From: Escherichia coli
GTDB lineage: Bacteria > Pseudomonadota > Gammaproteobacteria > Enterobacterales > Enterobacteriaceae
Length of the DNA stretch: 64,000 nucleotides
Strand: one strand, 5' to 3'
NCBI RefSeq assembly: GCF_003018255.1
Contig: NZ_CP027440.1
Made by a program: the position numbers and the translations under genes. This document shows, piece after piece, positions 19,071 to 64,000 of the stretch (its first letter is position 1; each line of letters opens with the position of its first letter). Below the pieces are notes generated by a model that saw nothing but the letters and a program-made list of their open reading frames with translations, was not told the origin of the DNA and made no database searches.

Positions 19071-19092
19071 GAATATCAGAACCACACCACGC

Positions 19093-20532: not shown

Positions 20533-20543
20533 CAGCATACAGA

Positions 20544-20571
20544 AGGGGCTTAAAAGCCCCTTTAGTGTTTT
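20544..20571 (+). terminator. Putative terminator between capsid and protease genes
   Basis: Hairpin aggggctt-aa-aagcccct followed by TTAGTGTTTT. Confidence 0.45.
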
Positions 20572-21144: not shown

Positions 21145-21145
21145 T

Positions 21146-22692: not shown

Positions 22693-22985
22693 CAGAAGAA
22701 CTTATCACCCTGGAAGAAGTGAAACTCCATTGCCGCATCGATGGCGACGATGAAGACCAGTTAATCAGCGGATACATTGCCGCATCGCTTGAGGCGTGCC
22801 AGATACACATAGGCAGGCGCTTTGATGACGGGCTGGAGTTCACGCCAGCCATAAAGATTGGCTGCATGATGTTTATCGCTCACCTGTATGAAAATCGCCA
22901 GATTGTCGCGGATAACGCAAAAACACGCGTACCCATGACGATAGGCGCACTCTGGACGGCTTACCGTGATGTGGGGGTGTACTGA
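22689..22985 (+). CDS. Head-tail connector (gp6-like)
   Basis: 98 aa; overlapping stop/start with neighbours on both sides. Confidence 0.55.
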   Translation: MTEELITLEEVKLHCRIDGDDEDQLISGYIAASLEACQIHIGRRFDDGLEFTPAIKIGCMMFIAHLYENRQIVADNAKTRVPMTIGALWTAYRDVGVY

Positions 22986-23425
22986 TGCCGTGGCAACCAT
23001 TAAGACGATGCACAGAACCAGGCTGTAACAGGCGCGTTAAATCCGGCAAGTGTGAGGAGCACAGGCGGGCGGCATGGCGTGCAGAGGATGCCAGACGAGG
23101 ACACCGCCGCGCGCGTGGATATTCCAGACAGTGGGACAAATACCGCGCCATGTATCTGAGTAAAAACCCGTTATGCGTGCGATGCCTTGAGAAGGGGATA
23201 TATACGCCCGCCGTGGTGGTGGATCACATTATCCCGATTAATGGCGGTGATGATGTTCTCTTCTGGCCCGAATGGAACCATCAACCATTGTGCCAGGCGT
23301 GTCATAACCAGAAAACGAAATGGCTTGATCCGGCAACAAAAAGCAAGCGTGCCGCAGGTGGATTTCGTGAAGAGGAAGAACGGGCTGCTAACCGCAATAA
23401 CTGGATGTATGACGCTGATGAATGA
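22985..23425 (+). CDS. HNH endonuclease (packaging-associated)
   Basis: Cys-rich zinc-finger and HNH motifs (CVRCLEKG...VDHIIPINGG...CQACHNQKT); sits upstream of terS/terL as in cos-packaging HK97-like systems. Confidence 0.8.
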   Translation: MPWQPLRRCTEPGCNRRVKSGKCEEHRRAAWRAEDARRGHRRARGYSRQWDKYRAMYLSKNPLCVRCLEKGIYTPAVVVDHIIPINGGDDVLFWPEWNHQPLCQACHNQKTKWLDPATKSKRAAGGFREEEERAANRNNWMYDADE

Positions 23426-23591
23426 GCGGGAACAAAACCGCCTTATCCGTGGACTTATAAGGCAGCGTGACGCATGGAAGACACAGGAAACAGGGCATAA
23501 AGATAAAGCGTCAGGACGCGCAGAACGCATCACAGCGAAGCGATTAACCGACCGTGACCGCGAGGTTATGGAATGTTTCCGCAATCGCTGA
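23420..23591 (+). CDS. Hypothetical small protein
   Basis: 57-aa reading frame MNEREQNRLIRGLIRQRDAWK... between HNH and terS; may not be expressed. Confidence 0.25.
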
Positions 23592-23713
23592 TGAGGCTGT
23601 ATGACGGGGTGGGGGGCGTTTTCAGGACAAACCCGACCCCGCCGGGCACCGAACGCCTCCTCAAATTTTTATGCACGGGAATTTTTTGAAAAATAATCTG
23701 GCGAAAAATAAGC

Positions 23714-24070
23714 ATGGCAAGACCACCGAAAGCCCCCGCCTACCTGGATGATATCGCCGTGAAGCAGTGGCGGGAAAAATCTAGGCAGCTTGCGGAACGG
23801 GGAGACCTGACCCCCGCCGACTGGAGCAATCTGGAACTGTATTGTGTCAACTACTCCATTTACCGGAAAGCCGTTGCAGACCTTGCGGCGCGCGGGTTCA
23901 GCATTGTTAACAGTCAGGGCGGCGAGAGCAGAAACCCCGCATTAAGCGCAAAATCCGACGCTGAAAGAGTGATGATAAAAATGGCCTCTTTGCTCGGTTT
24001 TGACCCGATAAGCCGCCGTAAAAATCCACCGGAAACAGAAGAAGAGGACGAGCTTGACCGCCTGGAATAA
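23714..24070 (+). CDS. terS: Terminase small subunit (P27 family)
   Basis: 118 aa, MARPPKAPAYLDDIAVKQWRE...; overlaps the terL start. Confidence 0.75.
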   Translation: MARPPKAPAYLDDIAVKQWREKSRQLAERGDLTPADWSNLELYCVNYSIYRKAVADLAARGFSIVNSQGGESRNPALSAKSDAERVMIKMASLLGFDPISRRKNPPETEEEDELDRLE

Positions 24071-25715
24071 GTACGCAGAAGACGTAAAAACGGGCAAAAT
24101 TCCGGCCTGTAAACGGCTGAAACAGGCCGTTAAACGGTACTTTTCGGACCTTGAAAGCCCCCTTTACACGTTCGATCGTGAGGTTGTGGAGCGGTTTATT
24201 GCCTTTTCCAGGGTGTGCCCGCACGTAAAAGGGCCGATGCGTGGCAGACCCATTGAGCTGGAGCCGTGGCAGCAGTTCGCCTTTGCGTGCATCCTCGGCT
24301 TTAAGGTTAAGGCCACCGGACGGCGCAAATACACGAGCGCCTTTATCGAAGTGCCGCGCAAAAATGCGAAATCCACGACCGCCGCGATTCTGGCTAACTG
24401 GTTTCTGATTATGGAGAACGGGCAGCAGGATATTTACACCGCAGCGGTGAGCCGTGACCAGGCGCGGATCGTTTTTGATGATGCGCGTCAGATGTGCCTT
24501 TTATCCCGACCGTTACGCAGGCGGGTGAATATTCAGGCCCACAAGGTGATGCACCCGAAAAGCAACAGCCTGTTAAAGCCGCTGGCAGCAAAAGCGGCAA
24601 CCATCGAGGGAACAAACCCCAGCCTTTCCATCGTGGACGAATACCACCTACACCCCGATAACGGCGTTTATTCCGCGCTTGAGCTGGGGATGGGCGCACG
24701 TCCCGAAGGGCTGTTATTTGCCATTACCACATCGGGCAGTAACGTCGTTTCAACCTGTAAACAGCACTATGATTATTGCTGCCAGATCCTGGACGGCGAA
24801 GAGGTCAACGATTCAATTTTTGTGCTGATTTACGAGCTGGACGACGAAAACGAGGTTGATGATCCGGCGATGTGGATAAAGGCTAACCCTAACATCGATG
24901 TTTCCGTGGATCGTGAAAAACTGGCCTCAACCATCCAGAAAGCGCGGGGTATTCCGTCGCAATGGGTGGAGATGATGACAAAGCGATTTAATATCTGGTG
25001 CCAGGGGGCTACCCCGTGGATGGGTAACGGCGCATGGGCTGAGTGTGCCGGAACGTTCACGGAGGAAGATTTACACGGGCAGGAGTGTTACGCGGGGCTG
25101 GACTTATCATCAACCAGCGATATTTCCAGCGTGTGCTATGCCTTTCCGGTCGGTAAAAATATCATGCTGGTTTCCCGTCATTATCTGCCGGAGTTCCAGC
25201 TACAGAACCCCGCCAATAAAAACCGCGCTGTCTATCGCCAGTGGGCTAAAGCGGGCTGGATACGCACAACGCCAGGTGACTGCATTGATTACGACCGGAT
25301 CAGAGATGACATCATGCAGGATGCGGAGAAATTTAATATCAGGCTGGTGGGCTTTGATACGTGGAACGCCACGCATCTCAGGACGCAATTACAGGGGGCT
25401 GGTTTTGAGGTGGAGCCGTTCCCGCAAACCTACCTCAGATTCAGTCCGGCGGCGAAATCGTTCGAAGTTTTTGTTAACCGCAGGGTGATTGTGCATCGTG
25501 GCGATCCGGTGTTGTCCTGGTCGATGAGTAACGTCGTGATGCAGAGTGACGCGAACGCCAATATCAAGCCGAACAAGAAAAAATCACCGAACAAGATAGA
25601 CCCGAGCGTAGCGGCGCTGATGGCGTTTGGTACATTCCAGGCAGAGCATGAGGATTTTGCTTTTGATATAAGCGACAGCCACCGCCAGAAACTGGAAGAA
25701 TTTAGCGGGGTGTAA
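24054..25715 (+). CDS. terL: Terminase large subunit
   Basis: 553 aa with ATPase and nuclease regions; final large gene before attR. Confidence 0.85.
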   Translation: MTAWNKYAEDVKTGKIPACKRLKQAVKRYFSDLESPLYTFDREVVERFIAFSRVCPHVKGPMRGRPIELEPWQQFAFACILGFKVKATGRRKYTSAFIEVPRKNAKSTTAAILANWFLIMENGQQDIYTAAVSRDQARIVFDDARQMCLLSRPLRRRVNIQAHKVMHPKSNSLLKPLAAKAATIEGTNPSLSIVDEYHLHPDNGVYSALELGMGARPEGLLFAITTSGSNVVSTCKQHYDYCCQILDGEEVNDSIFVLIYELDDENEVDDPAMWIKANPNIDVSVDREKLASTIQKARGIPSQWVEMMTKRFNIWCQGATPWMGNGAWAECAGTFTEEDLHGQECYAGLDLSSTSDISSVCYAFPVGKNIMLVSRHYLPEFQLQNPANKNRAVYRQWAKAGWIRTTPGDCIDYDRIRDDIMQDAEKFNIRLVGFDTWNATHLRTQLQGAGFEVEPFPQTYLRFSPAAKSFEVFVNRRVIVHRGDPVLSWSMSNVVMQSDANANIKPNKKKSPNKIDPSVAALMAFGTFQAEHEDFAFDISDSHRQKLEEFSGV

Positions 25716-25728
25716 TGAGGTCAGCAGC

Positions 25729-26010
25729 ATGACAGAAGCCGAAATACTGCGATTAATCCGCCGCGTCTCTGGAATCAGCCAGCAGGCTGACGAACAGACC
25801 ACGCAGCCGGACAGCGTGACAGCCGAAAATTATGCGCGTGTTGTTGCTGAGGTGATGCGCCGTGATGGTATCCAGCTTAATGATGCGGATATGCGCGACA
25901 TACGGATCCGCGTTCTTGAAATGCTGGCCTACAATCGCCGTGTAGAGATGTACAGGGAGAAAGAGAAAATTACGTACAACTGGAAGAAGCCGGAGCGGTT
26001 ACGGCGGTAA
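25729..26010 (+). CDS. Hypothetical protein
   Basis: 93-aa ORF after terL. Confidence 0.4.
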   Translation: MTEAEILRLIRRVSGISQQADEQTTQPDSVTAENYARVVAEVMRRDGIQLNDADMRDIRIRVLEMLAYNRRVEMYREKEKITYNWKKPERLRR

Positions 26011-26012
26011 CG

Positions 26013-26082
26013 TGTTGATTTAAAGGCGGCTCAATTTTGAGCCTCGTAACTGGTTGATATTTCCGGCAACCTCAATTTGAGG
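26013..26082. repeat. Two tandem GTTGAT...CTCAATTTGAG palindrome units; candidate cos/packaging or operator site
   Basis: Unit 1 gtgttgatttaaaggcggctcaattttgagcc and unit 2 ggttgatatttccggcaacctcaatttgagg, ~40-bp period, in the 400-bp non-coding right end of the satellite. Confidence 0.4.
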
Positions 26083-26413
26083 AGAGCGGAAACATCATCC
26101 CTCACATTCTGAATGGTCATAATGACCACGCAGGCCATCGAGGCAACCATAGCGATCATCGTTACGGTTGGAGCTTTCCGCCATTGGTGGAAAAGGTGCA
26201 CATCTGGATCATCATTACGGTGATCAAGGGTATGTAAAACCCACCAGCCTGATTAAAGGTTAACCGGAAAAAAAATCCGGTAGCCCCGTTATGGGGATCC
26301 CCATATCGACATTAACGCCCCTCATGAATTGGTGCGCTTCCCCCTGGAAAGATTACCCGCCTGTATATTTCTTGTGTCTATTTGTTCCACGTTGTTTCAT
26401 ACAGTGCACCGAA

Positions 26414-26439
26414 CGGTGTAGTTAATGGTGTAGTCAATT
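26414..26439. repeat. attR core of the satellite
   Basis: Identical 26-mer to 12454-12479. Confidence 0.8.
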
Positions 26440-26531
26440 TGCGATTTTTGGCACTTTTTGTAGTGCGGGTTATTTAATTAAATCAATGTGTTATTGAAAA
26501 TAAGTTATAGATATATCCCATTTATAACTCC

Positions 26532-33836: not shown

Positions 33837-34325
<489 letters not shown>

Positions 34326-34339
34326 AAAATGAGCATCAA

Positions 34340-35407
34340 TTAACTGAACTTGCTCTGCGCCCACATCACGCCGCTGGCATACTCTGGCGGCAGCAGCGGG
34401 ATTAAGGCTTCCAGCGTCGCGGTCAGACGCGATGTGTCGCTGTCGGTCAAATTCAGATGCCCCACTTTACGCCCCGGACGGACTTCTTTGTCGTACCAGT
34501 GCAGATGCACCAGCGGCAGTTTCAGCCAGTCATAATTCACATCGCTACCAATCAGGTTGATCATCACCGACGGACTATTCACTACCGGTTGCGGTAACGG
34601 CAGATCGGTAATCGCCCGCAGATGCAGCTCAAACTGGCTGATGCTGGCACCGTTTTGTGTCCAGTGACCGCTGTTATGCACACGCGGAGCCAGTTCGTTG
34701 ATCAGCAGACCTTGCGGGGTGACAAAACACTCCATTGCCATCACGCCTACATAGCCCAGCTCCTGCATAATCGCCGACAGCATCTCTTCGGCTTGCGCTT
34801 GCTGCTGCGCATTGGCCTGCGGGAAAGCGACGCTGGTGCGCAAAATACCGTCCTGATGCAGGTTATGCGTCAGCGGATAAAACACGGTGCTGCCATCAAA
34901 ACCGCGCGCGCCAACCAGCGACACTTCACCAGAGAAGTTAATGCCCTGCTCGACAATACATTCGCCGTAACACTCTGCCGGTAACTGTTCGGTTTCATTT
35001 GCGCGTAAACGCCATTGACCGCGACCGTCATAGCCACCAGTGCGACGCTTAACAATCGCCAGTTCACCTAAACGATCAAACACCGCAGGCCACTCGCTGC
35101 GATCGGCAAGTAACTGCCACGGCGCGGTCGGCAGGTGGAGCTTATCGAAAAGCTGCTTCTGAGTCAGACGGTCGGCAATAATCGGGAACACATCGCGGTT
35201 CACAAAGGCCGGATGGCGCGCCAGCTCGCGGGTTAATGCGGTTTCCGGCCAGCGTTCGATCTCAGCGGTAATCACACTTTGTTGAACAGGCACCGCCGCC
35301 GGTTCAGCGTCCAGCCCGACCGGCCAGACAGCAATGCCTAACGGTTCGCCTGCCTGACGCAGCATACGGCCTAACTGCCCGTTACCGAGGACGCAAACCT
35401 GTTTCAT
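34340..35407 (-). CDS. purK: N5-carboxyaminoimidazole ribonucleotide synthase
   Basis: 355-aa ATP-grasp ORF overlapping the purE stop. Confidence 0.9.
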
Positions 35408-35913
35408 GCCGCACCTCGCGGGTCCGGGTTTTCCAGCACTTCGTCGGTCTGGGCTTTGCGCCAGTCATTCAGACGCTGGTGCAGTTCTTTATCATGAGTC
35501 GCAAGAATTTGTGCTGCCAGTAACGCCGCGTTTGCCGCGCCAGCTTTACCAATCGCCAGCGTACCCACCGGAATGCCGCGCGGCATTTGTACGATGGAGT
35601 AGAGGCTATCGACACCGCTCAGTGCGGCGCTCTGTACTGGCACGCCCAGCACTGGCACCAGCGTTTTGGCGGCAATCATGCCTGGCAGGTGCGCTGCGCC
35701 GCCTGCGCCCGCAATAATCACCTGATAACCGTTCTCTTCGGCACTTTCGGCGAAGCTGAACAGTTTATCGGGGGTGCGGTGAGCAGAAACCACTTCAACG
35801 TGGTGTGGGACATTCAGGATTTCGAAGATTTCGGCGGCGAACTGCATGGTAGCCCAGTCGCTTTTGGACCCCATCACGATGGCGACACGCGCCGGATTAT
35901 TGCGGGAAGACAT
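35404..35913 (-). CDS. purE: N5-CAIR mutase
   Basis: ORF 35404-35940 trimmed to [19 protein letters not shown] (169 aa). Confidence 0.9.
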
Positions 35914-50548: not shown

Positions 50549-50745
50549 ACAAAAACCTTACATTAACGCTGGTTATGTTTAGGGTGGCGTATATTAAGGT
50601 TTTTTATGAATTGTGACAGCTTTTTACCATTAATAGGTATGACTATTGCGGCACGTTATTTTTACACTGGTTATAAAAGTTGCCGTTTGCGTAGAATGTA
50701 GACAAAAGCGTGGTGTCAAGGAGGGGAGGTTAACGCAGGGAAAGA

Positions 50746-51882
50746 TTACGAAAGCCCGCTCCCAGCAAGGACTGACGCGAGATAGTTTCTGTCCATGGCT
50801 GCTTTTCGCAACTTACGTCTTAACCCTGCCTTGAATACCTTATCATTCGTCAAAATATTAATAGCGATGTGCCGTAGCCCTGAAAATAATTCTGCTGCAT
50901 TTCCTCTTCTTATTTTGCAGTCGTCTTCATTCATTACCACGTCCAGACGCCAGTGCAGCTTATTCTCCACGTGCCAGTGGTTTCGGATTGCTGTGGCGAA
51001 CTTCTCTGCGGTTAAATCAGCAGAACTGATATAATATCTGACCGTCATTTCTGGCTCTTTCTTTTGTTCTGCTATTATTGACCGAAAGGAGACTGCCACG
51101 CATAATTTCTTCAGTCCTTTCCATTCAAACGTGAAATCAATAAGTTCATCAGGGACATCGCAAACAATGTGAAGCCGGATTTCTTCTCTGCCGTGACTCT
51201 TTTCACTAATTGCGTAACTGTCATGCTCTGGATTATTTAATTCTTTCAGTGGGAATTTTTCCTCAAAGGCTTTATTAAGCCGCCCCTGATTTCCTTTTAC
51301 AGCGAATAAATAATCACCGCCCTGTTTTTGTATCTTCTCTGCAATATCTTTCTGGCAACCCATCGCATCAGTTGTGATGATTTTTCCTTTAATATCCAGC
51401 ATGTTAAGAAGTTCTGGGATAGCTGTAATCTCATTAGATTTCTCATCCGTCCTGATCTGTCCGATGACCAGACTGTGCATTGTTGAGAACGCACTAATGA
51501 CATGAATCGCTCCCCTGCGGCGACTCCTGTCATAAGAATGCCGGAGTGTTTTTCCATCGATTGCAATAACGTCTTTATCATCTGAAGTATGGCAATCTCG
51601 CATCCAGTTAATAAAGCACTCGTGAAATTTTGAAGGACTGATACAGGATACAACTCTGGCGATGGTATCGTGAACAGGAATACCATTTTCAAAATCACCA
51701 TATTGTTTTAAAAAATCGAGATGTGTTTCCCCAAAATCCTCTATATCTTCCCAGCCTTCTGCACCAGAAATAACGGCACAAATAGTCAACAGTAGAATAT
51801 CCGACAATTTATGTTCCACTTTCCAGGCTTGTCTGTAATCGGGGATAATAGAAATATGTTCCATCAATTTTTTAAGTTCCAT
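50746..51882 (-). mobile_element. ISAs1-family transposase (H-repeat-associated protein)
   Basis: 378 aa, [51 protein letters not shown]...; classic H-rpt ORF at the distal end of an Rhs element. Confidence 0.85.
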
Positions 51883-51908
51883 TTTGTTCTCCTTAATTAT
51901 GTAAGGAG

Positions 51909-52147
51909 TATTTGATCATGTATACGCAATAAAAAACAGCTTCAGGTAATGAGGAATATCTCGATTTTTAAACATAAAATGCGAATTACTTAGTACAAAA
52001 AATGTACTTCTGATGATCTTTCCCTGGTATTTGATCATGTATAAGCAATAAAAAACAGCTTCAGGTAATGAGGAATATCTCAATTTTTAAACATAAAATG
52101 CGAATTGTTTAGTACAAAAAAGCAGCGTTACGTGATCTTTCCCTGGT
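51909..52147. repeat. Two tandem ~119-bp direct repeats
   Basis: tatttgatcatgtata(c/a)gcaataaaaaacagcttcaggtaatgaggaatatct...ctttccctgg at 51909-52026 and 52028-52147, ~93% identical. Confidence 0.8.
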
Positions 52148-52272
52148 GCAGGAACTGAGGAAGGAACTTTATCAGGTTAAACAGGTGGTGAAGGGAATGA
52201 AGAACGGGATATCCGGCGTATTACGCGAGGTATAAAAATAAAAGCCGGGAGATTGTCACTCCCGGCAACATA

Positions 52273-52554
52273 TTATTTTTTTATTTCATTATATCTGATA
52301 AAAAAAGTATTTAGCGCATCATGTTCATCTTGTGAGAACAATAAAATAATTTTATCCCATGAATGTCCTGTTACTCCATAATAGTCTTCAATATAAGATT
52401 GAAGCCTTATTAATATCTCAATATTGACGATTTCTTTTGGCTCTCTCATTTGCCATCCATCCAGGAAAGCTTTTAACGCCGATATGGTATGCCTGCTTAA
52501 ATATAAAGCTGGTCTTTTTTCTATCATATCAATCAGTTTAACAATATCATTCAT
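52273..52554 (-). CDS. Putative immunity protein for the orphan Rhs toxin tip
   Basis: 93-aa AT-rich ORF starting 3 bp after the orphan toxin stop. Confidence 0.5.
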   Translation of the reverse strand: MNDIVKLIDMIEKRPALYLSRHTISALKAFLDGWQMREPKEIVNIEILIRLQSYIEDYYGVTGHSWDKIILLFSQDEHDALNTFFIRYNEIKK

Positions 52555-52556
52555 AA

Positions 52557-53180
52557 TTAAAACCTTGATGGAGTAATGGTGTATTCGCCAGGAGAGTATA
52601 TATCATTCAGCCAATCTTCATACTTTATACCAGAAGGATTCATATTATCAAAAACTGTATCACCTACTTTTATTGCTTCATGATGACCATTAGTTGCTAT
52701 ATTTTTACCTATTCTATCACTCCATATATTGCCAAAGGCACCTTGTTTATTTTTAGTTTCGAGTATGAGATGCTCACCATTTACCCCAGCTTGTTGCATT
52801 TTACTTTTTAACGCTGCGGCAAATTTATCGCATTGAAAAAGCTGTTTAAACTTATCACTTATTGTTGTTGCAAGATCCCTTGTTTTTGCGATATCGCAAA
52901 TGGTTAATCCTAATGGATCAATATAACCAAGGGGATTATGAACATATGCATAATTGTTTATCCCGCCTCTCAGCCCTATCGGGTCACTCACCAGGTACAT
53001 CCCTGTTTCCGGCTCGTAATACCGGAACCGGTTATAGCACAGCCCGGATTCCGTATCCTGCCACTGTCCTGCATACAGCAGGCCGGGGTCGGGGTCGGCT
53101 TCCGGGTCCAGCTCCCCGCGCGGGTCCGGGTAGCCGGTGTCTGCGGGCAGACTGAGTGCCAGCCCCCACAGGCTGGTTTG
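52557..53180 (-). CDS. Orphan Rhs C-terminal module (core end with DPxGL motifs plus ~115-aa toxin domain)
   Basis: In frame with the upstream orphan core but separated by TGA; reads ...YRYYEPETGMYLVSDPIGLRGG...YIDPLGLTICDIAKTRD... Confidence 0.55.
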   Translation of the reverse strand, partial: QTSLWGLALSLPADTGYPDPRGELDPEADPDPGLLYAGQWQDTESGLCYNRFRYYEPETGMYLVSDPIGLRGGINNYAYVHNPLGYIDPLGLTICDIAKTRDLATTISDKFKQLFQCDKFAAALKSKMQQAGVNGEHLILETKNKQGAFGNIWSDRIGKNIATNGHHEAIKVGDTVFDNMNPSGIKYEDWLNDIYSPGEYTITPSRF

Positions 53181-54476
53181 TCACGGTCGCCACACGGTTT
53201 TACCTTCACTGTTAAAGAGCATCAGCGGACGGCCCGTCAGGTCGCTCACCGCATGATTCGTCCGCGTCACCCACTGCGGGGCCACCGACGGATGCGGCTG
53301 CCGTACCCGGCTGCACTGCTGGCTTATCAGCTCAAAGCCGTTAAACACCAGGTGCCGTACGCTGTACAGTTTATCATCGCGGTATTCCCGGATTTCCGCA
53401 ATATTGTCGCCGTCCCACAGGTACGTAAAACGGATTTTCTTCCGGTCGCAGCGTTTTTCCGTCCGCCTGCCGCTGGCGTCGTAGCGGTATTCCCACTGCT
53501 CACCCTGTGCGCTGCAATACCCGGTCAGCTGGTCACGGCTGTCCCACCGGAACCGCTCTGTTTCCGGGCGGTAGCCGTCACGGTGTCTGGTGCGGCTGAC
53601 CATCCGGCCTGCGGCGTCATAGTCATACTGCGTGTTTCCGGCCTGTTTCAGCCGGTGGCCTCCGGCATACTGGTCAGTCTCTTCACTTATCCGGTGCCTG
53701 CCCGCAGACTGCGCCTTCAGGTAGCCACAACTGTCATAGCCATAGGACTCATCGCCTTCGCCATAGCCCAGCCCGGTGCCTGAGGCTGTCACCGCCGTGA
53801 CCTGACCGTTCCGGTCCAGCCGGTATTCCCGCCGTGTTTCCCGTCCGTAATCTTCCCGGCTGGTGACAGCCGACACATTGCCCGCGCTGTCGTAACGGTA
53901 CTCCCGTACCAGTGAGGGGAGCAGCCCGCCCCATGTGGTTTCCTCCGGGAAAAATCCGGCGCGCTGGGTGACAAGCTGGCTGGCTGCATTCCAGCCCTGC
54001 TCACAGGCAAAACCCCGGTTACTGTGCCGGAGCACTTCACGTCCTGCCTCATCACGGCTGAACGTCAGCGTCTCATCCCCCGGCAGGATAACCTCCGTCA
54101 GTTCTCCGGCGGCGTTGTAGCGGTAGGTGGTTTTCAGCAGGGATTCACCGGGATGTCTGTCGCGTTCATCTTCCGGTGGCAGGATACAGCGGATGACGGT
54201 GTGTTCATCGGGGTAGTGGTATTCAATGGCCCGTCGGCCCTGAGTGGTGACATTCACCCGCCCGCGTTCGTCATAGCCGGTGCGCTGTGATGTGCCGTCC
54301 GGGCTGAAGATACCCGTCAGCCTGCCGGATTTGTCATACGCATACTGCGTTTTGCCTTCCGGCGTGATGACTTCTGCCAGGCGGCCTGCGGCGTCCCGGC
54401 TGTAGAGGATGGTTTCCTCCAGACCGTTAACCCTGGCGGTACACAGGCCATCGGCGTCATAGCGGTAACGCCAGGC
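53181..54476 (-). pseudogene. Orphan rhs core fragment (duplicate of the 3' core of the main rhs)
   Basis: ~1.3 kb ~98% identical to 55589-56885; 5'-truncated; ends in the same in-frame TGA. Confidence 0.75.
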
Positions 54477-54503
54477 TACTCCGTTGTACCCAGCTCATAG
54501 AAT

Positions 54504-54926
54504 TTATCTAGCAATTTGTATTAAGGGGGTTTCACCCACATGTTTTAATAAACTCATTAACCAGATGGCCTCTTCTCTCGTTCCGGAGTATATTACCTTC
54601 GATTCATTTCTAATAATTCGAAGTGCTTCTTTTGTATCAATCGAAAAAGCCTTACGAATGACTTTTATAGTTTCCATCTGTGATTTTATATTTTCAAGTC
54701 TAACATTCCATAAACCCTCAAAATCAATCAATTGTAGACGAATTTTTTCTGGGGGAAAGCCTATATCATCTGATTCACTACGTAATCCGCAATTATGGCA
54801 TATAATTGATTCATACCATGCGAGTATACCATTGTGACTCGTCTGCCCTATAGCTATAGAACATATTTTTCCACAGCAAGGACACTCAATAGTCGTTTTA
54901 AATTCATCACCAAACACTATAACCAC
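54504..54926 (-). CDS. Putative immunity protein for the main Rhs toxin (Cys-rich zinc-ribbon-like)
   Basis: 140 aa, CPCCGK...CHNCG motifs; start overlaps the toxin stop by 10 bp. Confidence 0.55.
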   Translation of the reverse strand: MVIVFGDEFKTTIECPCCGKICSIAIGQTSHNGILAWYESIICHNCGLRSESDDIGFPPEKIRLQLIDFEGLWNVRLENIKSQMETIKVIRKAFSIDTKEALRIIRNESKVIYSGTREEAIWLMSLLKHVGETPLIQIAR

Positions 54927-55588
54927 CCTCTCATCCGCTTATATCTTCGAATCGTCTCGTAAAATTTCTGTTCCATCTCAGTACCTTTGGGATGATGATC
55001 ATTCAATCCTCGCTTCCACCACCTATGATGTAATTCTTCATGAATAATAACATCTCTTAATGCTGCACGAGACGAAAAACTATTTTTACCAAACTGAGTT
55101 CCTTCCCAAAGTTTAGCAATCCCTGTTCGCATAAACGGATTGTATTGAGGGATATATGTTAGTTTAAGATATGCAAAATCTTCTTTAAGTATGGCTGTAA
55201 TTGCCTTATTTCTGGCTCTGGCCGTAGAACCTGTAACATGACCGAGATCAGAAACATAAGTCTGTGGCCCTCTAGAAAACTCGACTGTTTTATTAATTAT
55301 ACTAGTTATAGCTAATCCCAGCGGATCAACATACCCACACGGATTAGGCACATACCGGTAAGTCTGCTCACCCCCCAGCAACCCCAGCGGATCACTCACC
55401 AGGTACATCCCTGTTTCCGGCTCGTAATACCGGAACCGGTTATAGCACAACCCGGATTCCGCATCCCGCCACTGTCCTGCATACAGCAGGCCGGGGTCGG
55501 GGTCGGCTTCCGGGTCCAGCTCCCCGCGCGGGTCCGGGTAGCCGGTGTCTGCGGGCAGACTGAGTGCCAGCCCCCACAGGCTGGTTTG
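54917..55588 (-). CDS. Rhs C-terminal module: core end (DPLGL...DPLGL) plus toxin domain with HExxH motif
   Basis: Same frame as the rhs core after TGA; QTSLWGL...LYAGQWRDAESGLCYNRFRYYEPETGMYLVSDPLGL...IIHEELHHRWW... Confidence 0.6.
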   Translation of the reverse strand, partial: QTSLWGLALSLPADTGYPDPRGELDPEADPDPGLLYAGQWRDAESGLCYNRFRYYEPETGMYLVSDPLGLLGGEQTYRYVPNPCGYVDPLGLAITSIINKTVEFSRGPQTYVSDLGHVTGSTARARNKAITAILKEDFAYLKLTYIPQYNPFMRTGIAKLWEGTQFGKNSFSSRAALRDVIIHEELHHRWWKRGLNDHHPKGTEMEQKFYETIRRYKRMRGWL

Positions 55589-58500
55589 TCACGGTCGCCA
55601 CACGGTTTTACCTTCACTGTTAAAGAGCATCAGCGGACGGCCCGTCAGGTCGCTCACCGCATGATTCGTCCGCGTCACCCACTGCGGGGCCACCGACGGA
55701 TGCGGCTGCCGTACCCGGCTGCACTGCTGGCTTATCAGCTCAAAGCCGTTAAACACCAGGTGCCGTACGCTGTACAGTTTATCATCGCGGTATTCCCGGA
55801 TTTCCGCAATATTGTCGCCGTCCCACAGGTACGTAAAACGGATTTTCTTCCGGTCGCAGCGTTTTTCCGTCCGCCTGCCGCTGGCGTCGTAGCGGTATTC
55901 CCACTGCTCACCCTGTGCGCTGCAATACCCGGTCAGCTGGTCACGGCTGTCCCACCGGAACCGCTCTGTTTCCGGGCGGTAGCCGTCACGGTGTCTGGTG
56001 CGGCTGACCATCCGGCCTGCGGCGTCATAGTCATACTGCGTGTTTCCGGCCTGTTTCAGCCGGTGGCCTCCGGCATACCGCTCAGTCTCTTCACTTATCC
56101 GGTGCCTGCCCGCAGACTGCGCCTTCAGGTAGCCGCAGCTGTCATAGCCATAAGTCTCATCGCCTTCGCCATAGCCCAGCCCGGTGCCTGAGGCTGTCAC
56201 CGCCGTGACCTGGCCGTTCCGGTCCAGCCGGTACTCCCGGCGTGTTTCCCGTCCGTAATCTTCCCGGCTGGTGACACCTGACACGTTACCCGCGCTGTCG
56301 TAACGGTACTCCCGTACCAGTGACGGAACCAGCCCGCCCCATGTGGCTTCTTCCGGAAAAAATCCGGCGCGCTGGCTGACAGGCTGGCCGGCTGCATTCC
56401 AGCCCTGCTCACAGGCAAAACCCCGGTTACTGTGCCGGAGCACTTCACGTCCTGCCTCATCACGGCTGAACGTCAGCGTCTCATCCCCCGGCAGGATAAC
56501 CTCCGTCAGTTCTCCGGCGGCGTTGTAGCGGTAGGTGGTTTTCAGCAGGGATTCATCGGGGTGTCTGTCGCGTTCATCTTCCGGTGGCAGGATACAGCGG
56601 ATGACGGTGTGTTCATCGGGGTAATGGTACTCAATGGCCCGTCGGCCCTGAGTGGTGACATTCACCCGCCCGCGTTCGTCATAGCCGGTGCGCTGTGATG
56701 TGCCGTCCGGGCTGAAGATACCCGTCAGCCTGCCGGATTTGTCATACGCATACTGCGTTTTGCCTTCCGGCGTGATGATTTCTGCCAGGCGGCCTGCGGC
56801 GTCCCGGCTGTAGAGGATGGTTTCCTCCAGGCCGTTAACCCTGGCGGTACACAGGCCATCGGCGTCATAGCGGTAACGCCAGGTCACGCCGCCCCAGTCA
56901 TGCTCTTCCGTCACCCGCCCACAGTTGTCGAGAAGATAACGGTATGACTCACCCTGCGGGTTGATGACTTCTGTCAGTTGCAGCGTGTCTTTATCATAGC
57001 GGTACTGCCAGCGGTGGCCTTCACCGTCCGTTCGCGCCACCGGCAAATCAAACGGGCCGTATTCCATTGTCCAGACAACGCCGTTACCGTCCGTGTACGC
57101 CAGCAGGTTGCCGTGGCGGTCATAGCGGAATCCTTCTGCGCCGGTTCCTGCCCGCTCAAGGCCGCTCAGTTTATGGTGCTGCTGCCACTGCAACCGCACT
57201 GACTGACCGCCGGGGCCGCGCATCTTCACCGGCAGGTCGTGACCACTGTATTCGGTGTGGTGTTCACGGCCCATCACGTCGGTGAGTGTTTCCGGCCGGT
57301 TGTGGTGGTCGTACTCTATGCCCAGACGCCGTTCATCCTGGCGGAATATCCCCGACAGCAGCCCCTGAGCGGTGTACGCCAGCCGGGTCTCTTCGCCCTG
57401 TGGCGATACCAGACTCACCGGCAGGCCGCGTTCATCGCACTGCTGTGTCCACGTCTGCCCGGCAGGGTCGGTGATGTTGCTGAGCAGGCCGCGCTCATCA
57501 TAGCGGTACAACCACACCGCGCCGTCTGCCGCCGTATAACGGCTTAACTGACCGTGTACGGCGTTGTATTCAAATTTCTCCACCCGTCCGGCAGGGGAGT
57601 GGCGGGCCAGCAGGTGATGGAATTCATCCCATTCATACGTGGTGGTGCTGCCGTCCGGCGCTTCTTCCCGCAGAATATTGCCGTCAGGATCATAGTAATA
57701 ACGGTGAATGCCCTTGCCGTCCGTCACGGTGGTGCAGCCGTCACTATAGTCCAGCGTGGCGTTGTAATAGCCGTCCGCCCCGGTGACATTCACGCACCGG
57801 CCCTGTTCATCGTAGGTGAAACGGCTCCACGTCTGGTCGTTATCGGACCAGCGGATGATCCGGTCCGCAGCGTCGTACTCATAAAACAGGTGGTAGTCCA
57901 GCCGCGCATCCGCTTCGGTCAGCCGCCCCCGCGCATCCTGTTCGTAGGTCGCCAGCGTCTGTATGCCGTTATCCGTGCGGTGAATGGCTTTCAGGTAGCC
58001 GCTGGCGTGGTACGTCAGTTTAAGCCGGATCCCGTCGGTGTGACTGACACCCGTGATGCGGTACTGGCTGTCGCGCTCAAACGTGATGCGGTTGCTGGCG
58101 GTGTCGCTCATCCCGCCCAGCATGTACATCCGGTCACCGGGGCTGTGTGCCAGGCGGTCATCATTGGTATCGTCAGTCACCGGGTGGCGCAGGCGCATTC
58201 CCGGAAAGGCGTCATAAAAGAAGCGGCTGCTCAGGGCATCACGGTCGAACAGCTCCAGGTAATCGTCGCGGCGGCGCAGGATATACTGGGCGTGATACGG
58301 GTTAACCGCCGTATCACTGTCTCCGTCGAAGGCAAAGTACAGCGTGGCTCCCTGGCTGATGATATCCACCCGGTTTCCCTGTTCACGCACCCAGGCGTAT
58401 TCGCTCCAGGAGTCGCTCCAGCCCACGCCCGTCAGGCCATGCAGTGGCAGTACAGAACTGTGGAAACGGGTGAAGGAGAGGGGGAGTGTCTGGCCCAGCG

Positions 58501-59728
58501 TAAAGTCGGTACGTTCGTCGCAGTATGCGCCGGTTACCGGATCGACAGGATCTGTTACCCATCTGATGACTTTATTGGCAATACTTTTTAACGACTTACC
58601 TGTTTTCCCCAGCAACGCGCCGAGCTTTGCCCCCAGCAGCTTCCCGCTTTTCCCCAGCAGGTTTCCCAGTTTGCCGAGTTTCGCCAGATTCCCCAGTTTT
58701 CCCAGCAGTCCCGCGGGCGGCAGAAGATAGCTGGCTATCGTTATTCCCCCCAGGATCATTCTCTGCCACGGCGGGAACTCCGGCTGGATATCCAGATAGG
58801 TCACCTGTTCACCGCCAATAAAGACGTCCGGCGAACCTTCCACGATTGCCGCGCTGCACTCCAGTTTGTCGCCCTTGCGCGCGGCAGGCTGATTGTTGAT
58901 AAAGACGTTGCTGCTGCCCTGGGCTATCCTCGGTGGTTTGTTCTCCTTGTCGCAGAGCGCCGTGTCCTCACCGGCTTCCGGGAAATCCACGTCTTTTTTG
59001 ATTTCGCCACGCCCGCCCACCATGGTGGCAAACTCCATTAATACCGGACCGGCGGGAAACAGAAGCGATGCGCCGGCGCTGACGCGATCCATAATACCGG
59101 CATTGCTGTCCGTCAGGGTGATAACAGCGTTCCCCCAGGCCTTCGCCAGTGGCACTGCTTTTTCCGCTGCCGATTCAAGCAGGTCAGTGGCAATATCCCC
59201 CCATGAAGGTTCCCCCTGTGGTGGAGAGGGTATTGCTTCAGTCAGGGGAGGAGGGGGAAGGGTGACGGCGGCCCTGGCTGCTGGCTTACCGTTAATTTTT
59301 ACGTTTTCAGAACCGGTATTGATGGCGCCGTCCGTGTCACAAAAACTGTTTATCCATGACTCAAGCTGGTTCTGTTTCTCCTCCACATAATCACTCGCCT
59401 TATAGCTGGCATACATCAGCGCAGGCACCAGAACCAGCGCATAAGGGCCGGTGGCGCAGGCGGCCATAATCAGGCAACCTTCTGCGATAGTTACTATCGC
59501 CCCCAGCACGGCCCCTGCCAGTGCCCCCAGAAAACTTTTATGCTGAATTTCATCGCCCAGCCTGGCGGCAGGTGGGCCGGACTTCTTTGCTGCCAGCATC
59601 TGTGCAATGGCTTTGTCGTTGGCTGCCCGTTTCATCTGGCTGGCGACCATCGCCTGCTGTGACAGCATTCGCATTGCCAGCGTACCGCCTGCGGTCGCTC
59701 CCTGTGGGCCGCCTGGTCCTTCACTCAT
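55589..59728 (-). CDS. rhs: T6SS Rhs effector: prePAAR motif, transmembrane region, PAAR domain and YD-repeat core
   Basis: 1379 aa; N-terminal AARLGDEIQH (prePAAR AARxxDxxxH), hydrophobic helices, PAAR-like segment, then YD repeats; terminates at TGA just before the DPxGL region. Confidence 0.85.
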   Translation of the reverse strand: MSEGPGGPQGATAGGTLAMRMLSQQAMVASQMKRAANDKAIAQMLAAKKSGPPAARLGDEIQHKSFLGALAGAVLGAIVTIAEGCLIMAACATGPYALVLVPALMYASYKASDYVEEKQNQLESWINSFCDTDGAINTGSENVKINGKPAARAAVTLPPPPLTEAIPSPPQGEPSWGDIATDLLESAAEKAVPLAKAWGNAVITLTDSNAGIMDRVSAGASLLFPAGPVLMEFATMVGGRGEIKKDVDFPEAGEDTALCDKENKPPRIAQGSSNVFINNQPAARKGDKLECSAAIVEGSPDVFIGGEQVTYLDIQPEFPPWQRMILGGITIASYLLPPAGLLGKLGNLAKLGKLGNLLGKSGKLLGAKLGALLGKTGKSLKSIANKVIRWVTDPVDPVTGAYCDERTDFTLGQTLPLSFTRFHSSVLPLHGLTGVGWSDSWSEYAWVREQGNRVDIISQGATLYFAFDGDSDTAVNPYHAQYILRRRDDYLELFDRDALSSRFFYDAFPGMRLRHPVTDDTNDDRLAHSPGDRMYMLGGMSDTASNRITFERDSQYRITGVSHTDGIRLKLTYHASGYLKAIHRTDNGIQTLATYEQDARGRLTEADARLDYHLFYEYDAADRIIRWSDNDQTWSRFTYDEQGRCVNVTGADGYYNATLDYSDGCTTVTDGKGIHRYYYDPDGNILREEAPDGSTTTYEWDEFHHLLARHSPAGRVEKFEYNAVHGQLSRYTAADGAVWLYRYDERGLLSNITDPAGQTWTQQCDERGLPVSLVSPQGEETRLAYTAQGLLSGIFRQDERRLGIEYDHHNRPETLTDVMGREHHTEYSGHDLPVKMRGPGGQSVRLQWQQHHKLSGLERAGTGAEGFRYDRHGNLLAYTDGNGVVWTMEYGPFDLPVARTDGEGHRWQYRYDKDTLQLTEVINPQGESYRYLLDNCGRVTEEHDWGGVTWRYRYDADGLCTARVNGLEETILYSRDAAGRLAEIITPEGKTQYAYDKSGRLTGIFSPDGTSQRTGYDERGRVNVTTQGRRAIEYHYPDEHTVIRCILPPEDERDRHPDESLLKTTYRYNAAGELTEVILPGDETLTFSRDEAGREVLRHSNRGFACEQGWNAAGQPVSQRAGFFPEEATWGGLVPSLVREYRYDSAGNVSGVTSREDYGRETRREYRLDRNGQVTAVTASGTGLGYGEGDETYGYDSCGYLKAQSAGRHRISEETERYAGGHRLKQAGNTQYDYDAAGRMVSRTRHRDGYRPETERFRWDSRDQLTGYCSAQGEQWEYRYDASGRRTEKRCDRKKIRFTYLWDGDNIAEIREYRDDKLYSVRHLVFNGFELISQQCSRVRQPHPSVAPQWVTRTNHAVSDLTGRPLMLFNSEGKTVWRP

Positions 59729-59747
59729 GTGTTATCCCTCGTTTATG

Positions 59748-60209
59748 TCAGCGCGGCTGGTCCTTTTGGATGTCATTCTCCGGTGGCAACGGGGTGAAGC
59801 TCTTTATCACCTCCAGCAGCATCGTCTTTTGACTGTTCTTCAGGGATAAGGAGGTGCTGAAAGTGAAGGTCAGCAGCGTATCTCCACGCCGCTGGAATAC
59901 GGCTATCTGGTCAATCCGTCCCTGGTTCCCCTCATCTTCCGGACCGTTCCAGGAATAATCCAGCAGCCAGGCCGGGGCCTCTGCCAGAGTGATTTCCCGG
60001 CAGGCATGTTCGGTGTACCCATCAAGTTTGCCCTGGTACAGCGCCAGCGTTTCCTGGTACAGCTCTGGTGTCAGGGTTCCCTGTGGAACGGCTTCGCGGG
60101 TAATGACCAGGTTGATGCCACTGTTATCTGTGGACACCAGGACCTGCATTGACTGATCCTGCCATTGCGATGGCAGCTGAATATGACCTTCATTAAAAGT
60201 GAACTGCAT
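59748..60209 (-). CDS. Eag-type (DUF1795) chaperone for the prePAAR effector
   Basis: 153-aa ORF between vgrG and rhs; family assigned by context and size. Confidence 0.65.
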   Translation of the reverse strand: MQFTFNEGHIQLPSQWQDQSMQVLVSTDNSGINLVITREAVPQGTLTPELYQETLALYQGKLDGYTEHACREITLAEAPAWLLDYSWNGPEDEGNQGRIDQIAVFQRRGDTLLTFTFSTSLSLKNSQKTMLLEVIKSFTPLPPENDIQKDQPR

Positions 60210-60236
60210 AAAATACTCCCTGATAATCTGAATGAA

Positions 60237-62138
60237 TCAGTTGATGAAAACAGAACCGCCCACGATGGTGATGCCATCCTTCGACAGCCTGATTACCGTC
60301 GATTCCCCGACCTGTAGCTGAATGCCATCCGGCGTCAGCGCAATTTTGCTTTCCTCCACGGCCAGCATAATTTGCTTAATTGCCGTATAAGCCTGTATAC
60401 CGTCGCCTTCGCCACCATTGTTTACAGCGTCAACATGCACTGAACCGGCAATCGTGCCTCTGTCCTGAAAAACATCCTCAGATAAAGACCCTTTTAGTAC
60501 GCCTGTGATTTTGTGGCCTTTTTCCACCGTAAGAAGGCGGTTACCTTCCTGGATCATGACCGTCTGGTCATTTTTTACGGTTTCGCGGTGATCGTGTTTT
60601 ACGGTGGTGGTACGGTCGTTGAGTACCTCGGTATCCATGTTCTTCTGGGCGTGGATGTAGACCTGTTCTTTCCCTGTCGCATCGTCAAACTTCAGCTCGT
60701 TAAACCCGCTGCCCATATATGTTTTGGAGCGGATGGTCATCTGCGTCTTCGTTCCCGGCAGGCTGCCCGGCGAGCGGTTATCTTCGTGGTAGGTGCGCCC
60801 CATAATGATCGGCTGGTCCGGATCGCCGTTGAGGAAGTCCACAATCACCTCCTGACCCACGCGCGGTATCGCCAGGTTGCCAAATCCCGGCCCCGCCCAC
60901 GCCTGCGCCACCCGTATCCAGCACGAACTGTCCTGATTGGCCGGGTTATAGCGGTCCCAGTTGAATTTCACCCGCACCCGGCCATGCTCGTCGCAGAAGA
61001 TTTCCTCTCCCGCAGGCCCCGTCACGACGGCGCTCTGCGGACCGTCCACTGACGGCTTTGGCTTCGGCTGAGGTCGCCACGTCCGGTCTGCCGGTATTAC
61101 CGCAAAGTGGTTATTCAGCGTGGTACCTGACCCCCTGCGTCCCGGCACCGCCTGCGGCTGTTCGCCGTGCAGTTCGCTCGCCACCACCTGCCATTCCCGG
61201 TTCAGGTTCGCCTGCGGATGCTCCGTCAGCACAATTCGCCGTCCAGGCCATATCTCCGGCGAGCGGCTCATTCCCCGCGCGGTTTCGGCGTTGTTTCGCC
61301 AGCCGTCCATCTGCCAGCGGGCAAAGTTCTGCCCGTGGGCGCTCTTGAAACGCCCGGGCCAGTCATACACTTCATACTGTGTGCGCTGGTAATCCTGATG
61401 CTGGCCTTCCTGGTCAAAACGTCCGGCCCAGCCGGGGCGTTTAAAGGTGTAGTCTTTGGTCACCACAGAGGAAGGACGGATTTGTGCGCTGTAGCGGAAC
61501 TGGCTGATGCAGAGGGTGCTCACCTCGGTACGGGTGTTCGGGTTCCAGGGGATTTCAAAGGATTCCGGCAGATAGCGGACCGTGTCGCACAGCACCAGAC
61601 TCTGGTCGGTACTTTTCTGCGCGTGCTCCTCATAGAAGAAGATGCCTTCCTCCGCTGCTATCCGGCAGAGAAAGTCGTAATCGGTTTCACCGTACTGGAC
61701 ACAAAACTCACGGGAAGGATGCGGCTCACTGAACAGCGGGCTCCACTCCGTGACGTCATTTTCCTGCAGTATGGTGCCGAGGATGCTTCTGATGTCCTCG
61801 TTCTGGAATATACGGAAGTTCTGACGCAGTCCTGCCCGCCACAGCGGCGGGCGCACCTTCATGCTGTACAGCATCTGGTTTTTGTCGTTCTCCCCGAGTT
61901 CAAACCAGGTCACCACGCCTTTCACCCGGCGCTGTACGTCATCGCCCTGCCATACCGTCAGGTAGGCCATTTTGTCCAGCACCTGCGCAAATTCAAGGGA
62001 GAGAAACTGCTGACTGACCAGAGAAAGGTCAAGGGAAAAAAGTGAAGAGAGTGACTGGGTGAGATGAAAGGAGACCACCGCAAAAGCGTCCGGTGGCAGG
62101 CCGTCCACTTCCAGTGTGAAACGTAATCCGGTTGACAT
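60237..62138 (-). CDS. vgrG: T6SS spike protein VgrG
   Basis: 633 aa, MSTGLRFTLEVDGLPPDAFAVVSFHLTQSLSSLFSLDLSLVS...; gp27/gp5-like VgrG N-terminus. Confidence 0.85.
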   Translation of the reverse strand: MSTGLRFTLEVDGLPPDAFAVVSFHLTQSLSSLFSLDLSLVSQQFLSLEFAQVLDKMAYLTVWQGDDVQRRVKGVVTWFELGENDKNQMLYSMKVRPPLWRAGLRQNFRIFQNEDIRSILGTILQENDVTEWSPLFSEPHPSREFCVQYGETDYDFLCRIAAEEGIFFYEEHAQKSTDQSLVLCDTVRYLPESFEIPWNPNTRTEVSTLCISQFRYSAQIRPSSVVTKDYTFKRPGWAGRFDQEGQHQDYQRTQYEVYDWPGRFKSAHGQNFARWQMDGWRNNAETARGMSRSPEIWPGRRIVLTEHPQANLNREWQVVASELHGEQPQAVPGRRGSGTTLNNHFAVIPADRTWRPQPKPKPSVDGPQSAVVTGPAGEEIFCDEHGRVRVKFNWDRYNPANQDSSCWIRVAQAWAGPGFGNLAIPRVGQEVIVDFLNGDPDQPIIMGRTYHEDNRSPGSLPGTKTQMTIRSKTYMGSGFNELKFDDATGKEQVYIHAQKNMDTEVLNDRTTTVKHDHRETVKNDQTVMIQEGNRLLTVEKGHKITGVLKGSLSEDVFQDRGTIAGSVHVDAVNNGGEGDGIQAYTAIKQIMLAVEESKIALTPDGIQLQVGESTVIRLSKDGITIVGGSVFIN

Positions 62139-62881
62139 AGCAACCTCCGTGAAAATGAATAATAATCCGCATATATTGCATGTACAACATGTCGGGTAAT
62201 GAGATAAGCGGGCCGGCTTCAGGCGTTACCGGGGAATATCAGAAAAGTGTCATGGTTATGTGATGATTTTGTCCGGGATTTTACTTCAGAGAAACGGGGG
62301 GCTGTTGACTCAACAAAATAATCACAAACTCAACTGACGGGTTCACGATGTTATTAAGGACAGGCTCGTATATTACATCGAGTAACAAAAAAACACCTGA
62401 TATGCAAAGTCAAACCAATATTTGTAATGTCTTTTTATTCACAATAATAAATAACTCAATAAACATTATTGAAATGAATGATGGTTTGTATAAGGAATAT
62501 ACGCTACCGCCCCACCCTGATAACATGATCTGCACATTGCTATCTTAACGTCGTTAGACGCTGGCTTAATAGTGAATATTTTAAATTAGGAATTTATCAA
62601 GTTCACTTGATAAATAGACCGCGTGAATAATATAGAGATTAATGATGCCTGACTGCGCTTTATATTATAGCCGATTCTTTTATAGTGATGAAAATTTAGT
62701 AATAGCATTGTGCTCTACAATTGGTAGAAACACGAATTTAATTAAATTGCATATCTAAATATCTCGTAAATATCCGAAAATGAATAACCTTCGATTTCAG
62801 ACGACCAATAAGGTCTTCCCTGTTTTATTGATAAATAATAACAGAAGGCGATACATCACTCTTTGAGTTTGAACTAACTAA

Positions 62882-64000
62882 TTAACCTTTCTCCGGTAGT
62901 TTGATCATAAACCTTGTCCCCCGAGCATCTGACGTTACTGCAACCGTGCCTTTATGCGCGACAACAATCGATTTCACTATCGCCAGGCCAATACCGCTAC
63001 CTTCGCCTTTTCGCTGACGGGAGGGGTCAACGCGATAGAAACGGTCAAACAATCGCGGTAAGTGCTCGGGCGCAATGGGCGTACCGGGGTTTTCGACGGT
63101 AACTTGCACCAGGTGATCGACCGTCTGGCAGCGCACGACAATTGTCTCTCCGGTTGGCGTATAACGCAGGGCATTAGAAAGCAGGTTGCTTAACGCCCGA
63201 CGCAGCATCAGCGGATCGCCCGCAACCTGACACTCGTCGCCAACAAACCGCAGCTCCACGCCGCGATCTTCTGCTAACGCCTCGAAAAAATCGAACACTT
63301 TGCCGACTTCATCCGCCAGGTTGAGCATTTTCTTTTCGGGGATTAGCTGGTTGTTATCGGCCTGAGCGAGAAACAGCATATCGCTGACCATTTTCGCCAT
63401 TCGCGTCAGCTCTTCGAGATTAGAGTAGTGCACATCTTCCAGCTCCTTCTGGCTGCGCGACTGGCTGAGGGCGATTTCCGTTTGCGTAATGAGATTAGTA
63501 ATAGGTGTGCGAATTTCGTGGGCGATATCCGCTGAGAAATTGGACTGGCGGGTAAAGACATCCTCAATACGCTCGATCATATGGTTGAACGACAGTACCA
63601 GCTGTTCCAGCTCAATGGGCACGGTCTGCGGGTCAAGGCGAACGTCGAGATCTTTCGAGGTAATGTTCTGGATTTGACGGCTGACGCTGCGGATCGGCGC
63701 GTGACCTTTATGTACCGCCAACAGCACGATAAAGACGATCAGGATGCTGATTACCGATGCGGTCATAATAAGTTTATTCATCAAATCATTTATGTAATGA
63801 AGATGAAAATCGATCGAAAGCGCAATGTAGAGCGTATAAATCGGTTTGCCGTCCACCAGTGGGCCAACCGGCAAGCTAATCATCCGCCAGTTGCTGTGTT
63901 CCATATGCCCGTGACCGTGGCCCGGCATCATCATCGTCGGGCCGGAAAGGAGATACACCTCGCCGCCCTGCGCGTCTTTATCGGGTATGGCGTCACGCGT
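62882..64000 (-). CDS. cusS: Copper/silver sensor histidine kinase CusS, C-terminal part (N-terminus beyond window end)
   Basis: H-box HEIRTPITNL and ATPase G-boxes (GSGIGLAIVKSIV); the ORF runs off the right edge. Confidence 0.8.
   Translation of the reverse strand, partial: TRDAIPDKDAQGGEVYLLSGPTMMMPGHGHGHMEHSNWRMISLPVGPLVDGKPIYTLYIALSIDFHLHYINDLMNKLIMTASVISILIVFIVLLAVHKGHAPIRSVSRQIQNITSKDLDVRLDPQTVPIELEQLVLSFNHMIERIEDVFTRQSNFSADIAHEIRTPITNLITQTEIALSQSRSQKELEDVHYSNLEELTRMAKMVSDMLFLAQADNNQLIPEKKMLNLADEVGKVFDFFEALAEDRGVELRFVGDECQVAGDPLMLRRALSNLLSNALRYTPTGETIVVRCQTVDHLVQVTVENPGTPIAPEHLPRLFDRFYRVDPSRQRKGEGSGIGLAIVKSIVVAHKGTVAVTSDARGTRFMIKLPEKG

Follow-up and report, generated by a model that had tools for sequence, protein, structure and literature searches.

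The site between nfrB and cusS of Escherichia coli is rhs locus 4, one of the eleven conserved rhs positions in this species (Jackson et al. 2009, PMC2935791, Table 3). In EDL933, this site is occupied by vgrG1 (z0707), eagR (z0706), and rhsF (PMC7216683). According to the summary in PMC6730261 of the work by Ma et al. [quoted passage not shown] Class I of the prePAAR effectors, the family of the Rhs protein discussed below, was defined in PMC7773334. We analysed a stretch of 64,000 nucleotides from the E. coli contig NZ_CP027440.1 (assembly GCF_003018255.1), hereafter the window, which carries an island with vgrG, a chaperone gene, and rhs genes at the nfrB–cusS site. We consider it highly likely that this island is a copy of the common E. 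coli T6SS effector island at nfrB–cusS in which spike and chaperone are intact, the Rhs effector is disarmed by an in-frame stop codon, and the immunity genes would still be protective.

The intact form of such an island is understood from the class I prePAAR family, and we presume the same mechanism here. The Eag chaperone would shield the N-terminal transmembrane (TM) helices of the Rhs protein, and prePAAR together with PAAR would cap the cognate VgrG trimer. The cage of YD repeats would enclose the C-terminal toxin, to be released by cleavage at DPxGL, and a T6SS encoded elsewhere would fire the spike into neighbouring bacteria, with the small downstream immunity genes protecting kin. Orphan 3' fragments carrying a tip and an immunity gene would serve as a reserve, which homologous recombination could swap onto the main gene (C-terminal displacement).

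In the window, the island reads on the minus strand in the order vgrG, Eag chaperone, rhs with the first tip, immunity gene 1, orphan rhs with the second tip, immunity gene 2, and an ISAs1 element. The preliminary description had listed the same elements, and family searches bore out every one of them. It had also called the island a complete spike-chaperone-effector cassette, of which only half holds: the parts are present, but the main rhs gene is broken by a TGA codon upstream of the autocleavage module and the toxin.

The main rhs gene (54917-59728, minus strand) encodes a class I prePAAR PAAR-Rhs protein with a Tox-MPTase5 tip in a broken frame, as recognised from Pfam, NCBIfam, and PDB matches. 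Its continuous open reading frame (ORF) at 55589-59728 covers 1379 aa. The prePAAR motif AARLGDEIQH lies at residues 54-63 (Pfam prePAAR_I, 4.5e-5) and is directly followed by hydrophobic stretches at residues 64-105. TM regions were judged from Kyte-Doolittle windows, one TM region being the mark of class I and two that of class II; a second, weak hydrophobic window at residues 324-342, after PAAR, lies just at the cut-off of 1.6. Pfam places a split PAAR_motif at residues 131-152 and 266-310 and DUF6531 at 393-454, and YD repeats occur in nine stretches (TIGR01643). Residues 253-1378 align to the solved T6SS Rhs toxin Tre23 (7pq5) at 4.7e-232. In the conceptual continuation of the gene, DPLGL autocleavage motifs stand at positions 1446 and 1468 and HEELH (HExxH) at 1563. 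The tip matches Tox-MPTase5 (PF15641) at 2.5e-29 over the full-length model and is a predicted metallopeptidase.

The in-frame TGA is codon 1380 of the main rhs gene (55589-55591, minus strand), between GKTVWRP and QTSLWG. It stands 66 codons before the first DPLGL, with the TIGR03696 core, both DPLGL motifs, and the toxin all downstream; the tip is left on a separate ORF of 177 aa (54917-55450) in the same frame as the rhs ORF. Because the TGA comes before the cleavage module, the main gene would encode a 1379-aa protein without autocleavage module or Tox-MPTase5, and the toxin would be neither encapsulated nor delivered. Class I effectors carry the autocleavage core and the toxin in frame with the cage. 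This arrangement is lost in the window, where the TGA precedes both, and is found in the relative JNE112863 (NZ_AP045072.1). JNE112863 and JNE23-011, whose islands are 99.7% identical to that of the window, have GGA (Gly) at this codon and an intact gene of 1601 aa.

The same TGA, in identical context, is present in the orphan at 53181-53183. A four-way alignment showed that, between 56888 and 56079, some 30 main-specific differences set the main copy apart from the orphan, and that it equals the orphan at 12 linked sites from 55700 to 55559, the stop included, at all of which the intact JNE112863 differs. This linkage indicates that the stop belongs to a recombination tract, which measures 142 bp or more but not more than about 610 bp, and is not a lone base change. 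The complete genome DETEC-S792 (NZ_CP116067.1, 5265-18521) extends the comparison, with a main rhs and three orphans at the same site, each orphan with its tip and immunity gene. All four of its rhs copies have the same TGA, and the Prokaryotic Genome Annotation Pipeline (PGAP) flags the main gene with 'internal stop'; the draft GCA_005045255.1 likewise has TGA in both copies. In an 11-sequence alignment, the main-copy haplotype of the window is that of the DETEC-S792 main copy down to 55513, followed by a patch at 55506-55450 (a 6-bp insertion and three substitutions) whose other occurrence is in orphan 1 of DETEC-S792, a module that the window does not have. We had considered a recent orphan-to-main conversion in this very strain and dropped it, as the DETEC-S792 main copy already has the same haplotype, and we assign no direction to the exchange. 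The shared haplotype indicates instead that the stop of the main gene was inherited within the lineage.

The single orphan shared by the window and JNE112863 combines the 5' part of DETEC-S792 orphan 1 with the tip of orphan 3. From this mosaic structure, we conclude on sequence grounds that the locus is a contracted, mosaic derivative of a longer array. Another variant of the locus is seen in the draft GCA_902708725.2 (4881-9326), a rearranged island with a 326-aa VgrG/PAAR fusion ORF, a 564-aa orphan ORF without the stop, and GGA in both copies. It could be a real deletion variant or a misassembly of repeats, and we made no use of it since misassembly is possible.

Population counts were taken over 5,426 complete E. 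coli genomes. An exact 71-mer with the TGA occurs in three of them and the GGA type in 353, and none is at least 99% identical to the core/tip junction of the window. The 1379-aa product has one exact occurrence among about 15 billion proteins, on a contig of 4.89 Mb. The alignments and counts thus describe the stop as a rare, lineage-restricted allele homogenised among the rhs copies. The recombination that swaps tips has also homogenised the 3' core among the copies and put the TGA at codon 1380 into both the main gene and the orphan.

The orphan rhs (52557 to about 54475, minus strand), identified by its homology to the main core and by its Tox-PL-2 domain, is a 3' fragment without the N-terminal delivery part. 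It has what defines an orphan, namely 3' core homology, a distinct tip, an immunity gene of its own, and no N-terminal region. Its core (52980-54475) and the 3' core of the main gene share 97.9% identity across 1496 bp, and the two tips diverge past 55388 and 52980, respectively. The orphan tip matches the papain-fold domain Tox-PL-2 (PF15643, 1.7e-22) and has DPxGL motifs of its own; PGAP flags the orphan with 'internal stop' in relatives. Only four of the complete genomes have the Tox-PL-2 junction. In one of these four, AF40 (NZ_OZ547043.1, 8658-13415), the Tox-PL-2 tip is fused to the main rhs, an arrangement that we read as C-terminal displacement in action. Codon 1380 of the AF40 main gene is GGA, but position 31 holds another nonsense codon; a Met follows this codon immediately, upstream of prePAAR.

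Two predicted immunity genes accompany the tips. Immunity gene 1 (54504-54917, minus strand, 137 aa) begins with a GTG that overlaps the TAG of rhs as TAGTG, with GAGGG upstream, and its product has CxxC...CxxC motifs. Immunity gene 2 (52273-52554, minus strand) encodes 93 aa, and an exact-sequence look-up found this protein on 493 contigs. Neither immunity protein has a match in Pfam or NCBIfam. Both would still protect the strain against relatives that fire these toxins.

The delivery side of the island is intact. The vgrG gene (60237-62138, minus strand) encodes a T6SS spike (TssI) of 633 aa that scores 627 bits against TIGR03361 (cut-off 186) and 439 bits against TIGR01646 (cut-off 122), and the exact protein is found on 680 contigs. 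The preliminary description had made its reading hinge on this assignment, and the TIGR03361 score rules out that the gene was mistaken for vgrG. The chaperone gene (59748-60209, minus strand) encodes 153 aa with a DcrB/DUF1795 domain (Pfam DcrB PF08786, 3e-27) that matches the solved structures of EagT6 (6xrf) and PA0094 (1tu1) in the PDB at 1.6e-5. Its PGAP annotation reads 'DcrB-related protein', and in the E. coli literature this chaperone is called EagR. Ending 19 bp upstream of the start of rhs, its gene adjoins that of the prePAAR effector.

T6SS core genes are absent from the 64-kb window; their absence from the whole genome, along with no expression of the island, was the second point on which that description had made its reading hinge. 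JNE112863 carries a full T6SS cluster between aspV and yafV, with tssA, B, C, E, F, G, H, J, K, and M, icmH/DotU, tagH, vasI, two hcp, vgrG, and rhs. All three nearest complete genomes have its tssE-C-B segment at 99.9-100% identity, and this segment is present in about 2,200 of the 5,426. Judged from the core cluster of these three genomes, the genome studied here probably does not lack T6SS core genes. By BLASTP, residues 1-538 of the island VgrG are 92% identical to the VgrG of the aspV-yafV cluster in the nearest relative, and the last ~95 residues are unrelated to it. Such a divergent C-terminus fits the expectation for a cargo-specific part, and the pair fits a picture in which the island VgrG would be an alternative spike for the same T6SS machine with its own cargo adaptor.

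Taken together, at the nfrB–cusS locus the strain probably represents a 'defended but disarmed' form within its lineage, one that would have lost toxin delivery and retained the immunity function. Several points weigh against this picture. The VasL-domain gene of the JNE112863 cluster is frameshifted (34174-35584 of the JNE112863 stretch), and the T6SS machine itself may be impaired in this lineage. The T6SS core attributed to the strain is read across from its relatives. The truncated Rhs may or may not fold and cap VgrG, and toxin, immunity, and secretion functions are all predicted. In E. coli, a UGA with a C after it terminates translation weakly, and with this leaky UGA-C some read-through product is possible.

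Four other accounts of the locus have to be weighed. One holds that the tips are expressed without delivery, from internal promoters and starts, so that the toxin-immunity pairs act as modules resembling type II toxin-antitoxin systems. There is precedent in Salmonella Typhimurium, where internal transcription and translation of Rhs-CT toxins occur for main and orphan rhs (PMC7043789). The ORFs after the stop (the 177-aa ORF of the main gene and a 147-aa ORF at 52557-53000 in the orphan) cover whole toxin domains, both immunity genes are intact, and candidate internal starts are available (TTG at 55450 and ATG at 55408 in the main gene; ATG at 53000 in the orphan). However, these starts fall within the conserved core, upstream of DPLGL, and no Shine-Dalgarno sequence is obvious for any of them. 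We regard this account as unlikely; it is compatible with a disarmed effector and does not exclude it.

A second account takes the cassette as fully functional, the TGA being a sequencing or assembly error or being read through to give a working full-length effector. The other parts are indeed intact, with VgrG, the chaperone, and immunity gene 2 identical to proteins on hundreds of contigs. Leaving aside the stop and the insertion of 6 bp, only 7 residues distinguish the conceptual full-length Rhs from the intact protein of JNE112863, and the leaky context of the stop favours read-through. An error is nevertheless hard to reconcile with a TGA that sits within a tract of 12 linked substitutions and recurs in two other assemblies, one of them the complete genome flagged by PGAP. 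As for programmed recoding, the 81 nt that begin with the TGA show no unusual RNA structure, their folding being no better than that of shuffled sequences (z = 0.38), and a rare allele (three genomes against 353) fits decay better than recoding; we found recoding unsupported. On balance, a working cassette seems quite improbable.

The nonsense codon, shared by all rhs copies of the locus in this lineage, could also be a silencing device and not simple decay, either a leaky UGA-C that allows very low delivery of the metallopeptidase toxin or an OFF state that recombination can reverse. If the latter were true, an rhs copy with GGA, like that of JNE112863, would re-arm the effector by gene conversion, and the locus would switch slowly in the manner of phase variation with the immunity genes staying on. 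We give this idea very little credence. Hardly credible at all is an assembly artefact in which reads of the 1.5-kb orphan repeat were mixed into the main copy: the high identity of the two copies over that repeat and the scrambled locus of the draft GCA_902708725.2 might invite it, but the upstream 800 bp of the same repeat retain the ~30 main-specific differences, the main haplotype agrees at every site as far down as 55513 with that of DETEC-S792, a complete genome, and the exact product lies on a contig whose 4.89 Mb mean a closed chromosome.

Alignment with K-12 MG1655, in which nfrB and cusS are adjacent with a gap of 149 bp, placed the DNA absent from K-12 at 50691-62894 (12,204 bp); 50549-50690 is intergenic DNA of the K-12 type and lies outside the island. 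The island stands in place of 14 bp of K-12, the last cusS codons among them, and CusS consequently ends with ...RFMIKLPEKG (482 aa in relatives) in contrast to ...RFVITLPA (480 aa) in K-12, the junction falling within 62882-62905. The rhs genes lie on the reverse strand between nfrB and cusS, which is the position of rhs locus 4 (Jackson et al. 2009). The G+C content is 0.62 in both rhs cores as against 0.29-0.38 in the tips and immunity genes. The adjacency of nfrB and cusS in K-12 and the contrast between a GC-rich core and AT-rich tips and immunity genes had both been put forward in the preliminary description, and they proved correct; its explanation of the contrast by swapped toxin modules is, in our judgement, also right. 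It erred in taking the island for a strain-specific insertion. A probe of the K-12 junction is continuous in only 2,326 of the 5,426 genomes, and most of the others break at the exact base where the island begins; out of 5,350 complete genomes, about 3,000 have an interruption here. Of the island, 80% or more occurs in one place in 753 genomes, and the chaperone gene together with the region for the VgrG C-terminus, at 95-99% identity, occurs in 2,240 (about 40%). With the locus published as locus 4, the island, its architecture, and its mechanism are already described and not new.

Upstream of vgrG, a leader at 62139-62894 (minus strand), whose outer end supplies the altered last codons of cusS, has no annotated gene and a G+C content of 0.35 (measured over 743 bp). 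A promoter scan of this AT-rich leader gave six sites against 3.5 expected, which is uninformative, and the island has no Rfam match for RNA genes at E ≤ 0.1. At the other end lies an insertion sequence (IS) of the ISAs1 family (H-repeat/ISEc1-like; 50736-52028, minus strand, ~1293 bp), recognised by NF033564 and its terminal inverted repeats at 50736-50760 and 52014-52028, whose 25-nt arms are 80% complementary. Its transposase ORF (50746-51882, minus strand, 378 aa; NF033564, 417 bits) is intact, the exact protein being found on only four contigs; in JNE112863 and JNE23-011, the gene has an internal stop and is a pseudogene. A tandem duplication with a period of 119 bp (51908-52028 and 52027-52147) affects the right end of the IS. 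The segment 52027-52235 (plus strand), identified from direct repeats and from PGAP annotation in three relatives, holds the second right-end copy and a fragment of a SymE-family type I toxin without its N-terminus (about 52128-52235), and is debris of earlier insertions.

The window upstream of the island contains allantoin, pur, cysS, folD, ompT, and nfrA genes and one extra element. The latter is a block of about 14.2 kb among the allantoin genes (12333-26503) that is absent from JNE112863. Its best matches are an integrase, a DNA primase, a terminase large subunit, a portal, and a major capsid protein, and 217 of the 5,426 genomes contain 80% or more of the block. These matches suggest a small phage-like or satellite element, similar to the capsid-forming phage-inducible chromosomal islands (PICI-like).

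How does the locus compare with the known systems? It resembles the E. coli vgrGO1-eagR-PAAR-Rhs-CT modules, EDL933 vgrG1-eagR-rhsF, and locus 4 in chromosomal site, gene order, and the families of VgrG and chaperone. The tips differ, the main gene having Tox-MPTase5 and the orphan Tox-PL-2, as compared with the MPTase4, REase-3, and RNase tips tested in E. coli vgrGO1-eagR modules (as summarised in PMC6730261). Unlike in those modules, the main gene has a nonsense codon before the toxin. With Salmonella Rhs1-SciW, RhsA-EagR1 of P. protegens (PMC7773334), and Photorhabdus Tre23 (7pq5), the protein shares AARxxDxxxH, an N-terminal TM region, PAAR, the Rhs cage, and an adjacent DcrB/DUF1795 chaperone. 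Compared with the class I effectors and Tre23, however, prePAAR comes after 53 residues, an insert of about 110 residues splits PAAR, and this copy lacks the C-terminal plug, the autocleavage site, and the toxin in frame. Going by gene content, an annotation would count this strain among those armed with a Tox-MPTase5 Rhs effector, although scaffold and toxin are uncoupled. The arrangement of a 3' core with a new tip and an immunity gene downstream of the main gene is that of the Rhs orphan arrays (Jackson et al. 2009; Salmonella, PMC7043789). The locus thus provides a small, clear example of tip-swapping recombination that spread a nonsense codon through all copies of an array; unlike in the known orphan arrays, the exchange disarmed the effector instead of re-arming it.

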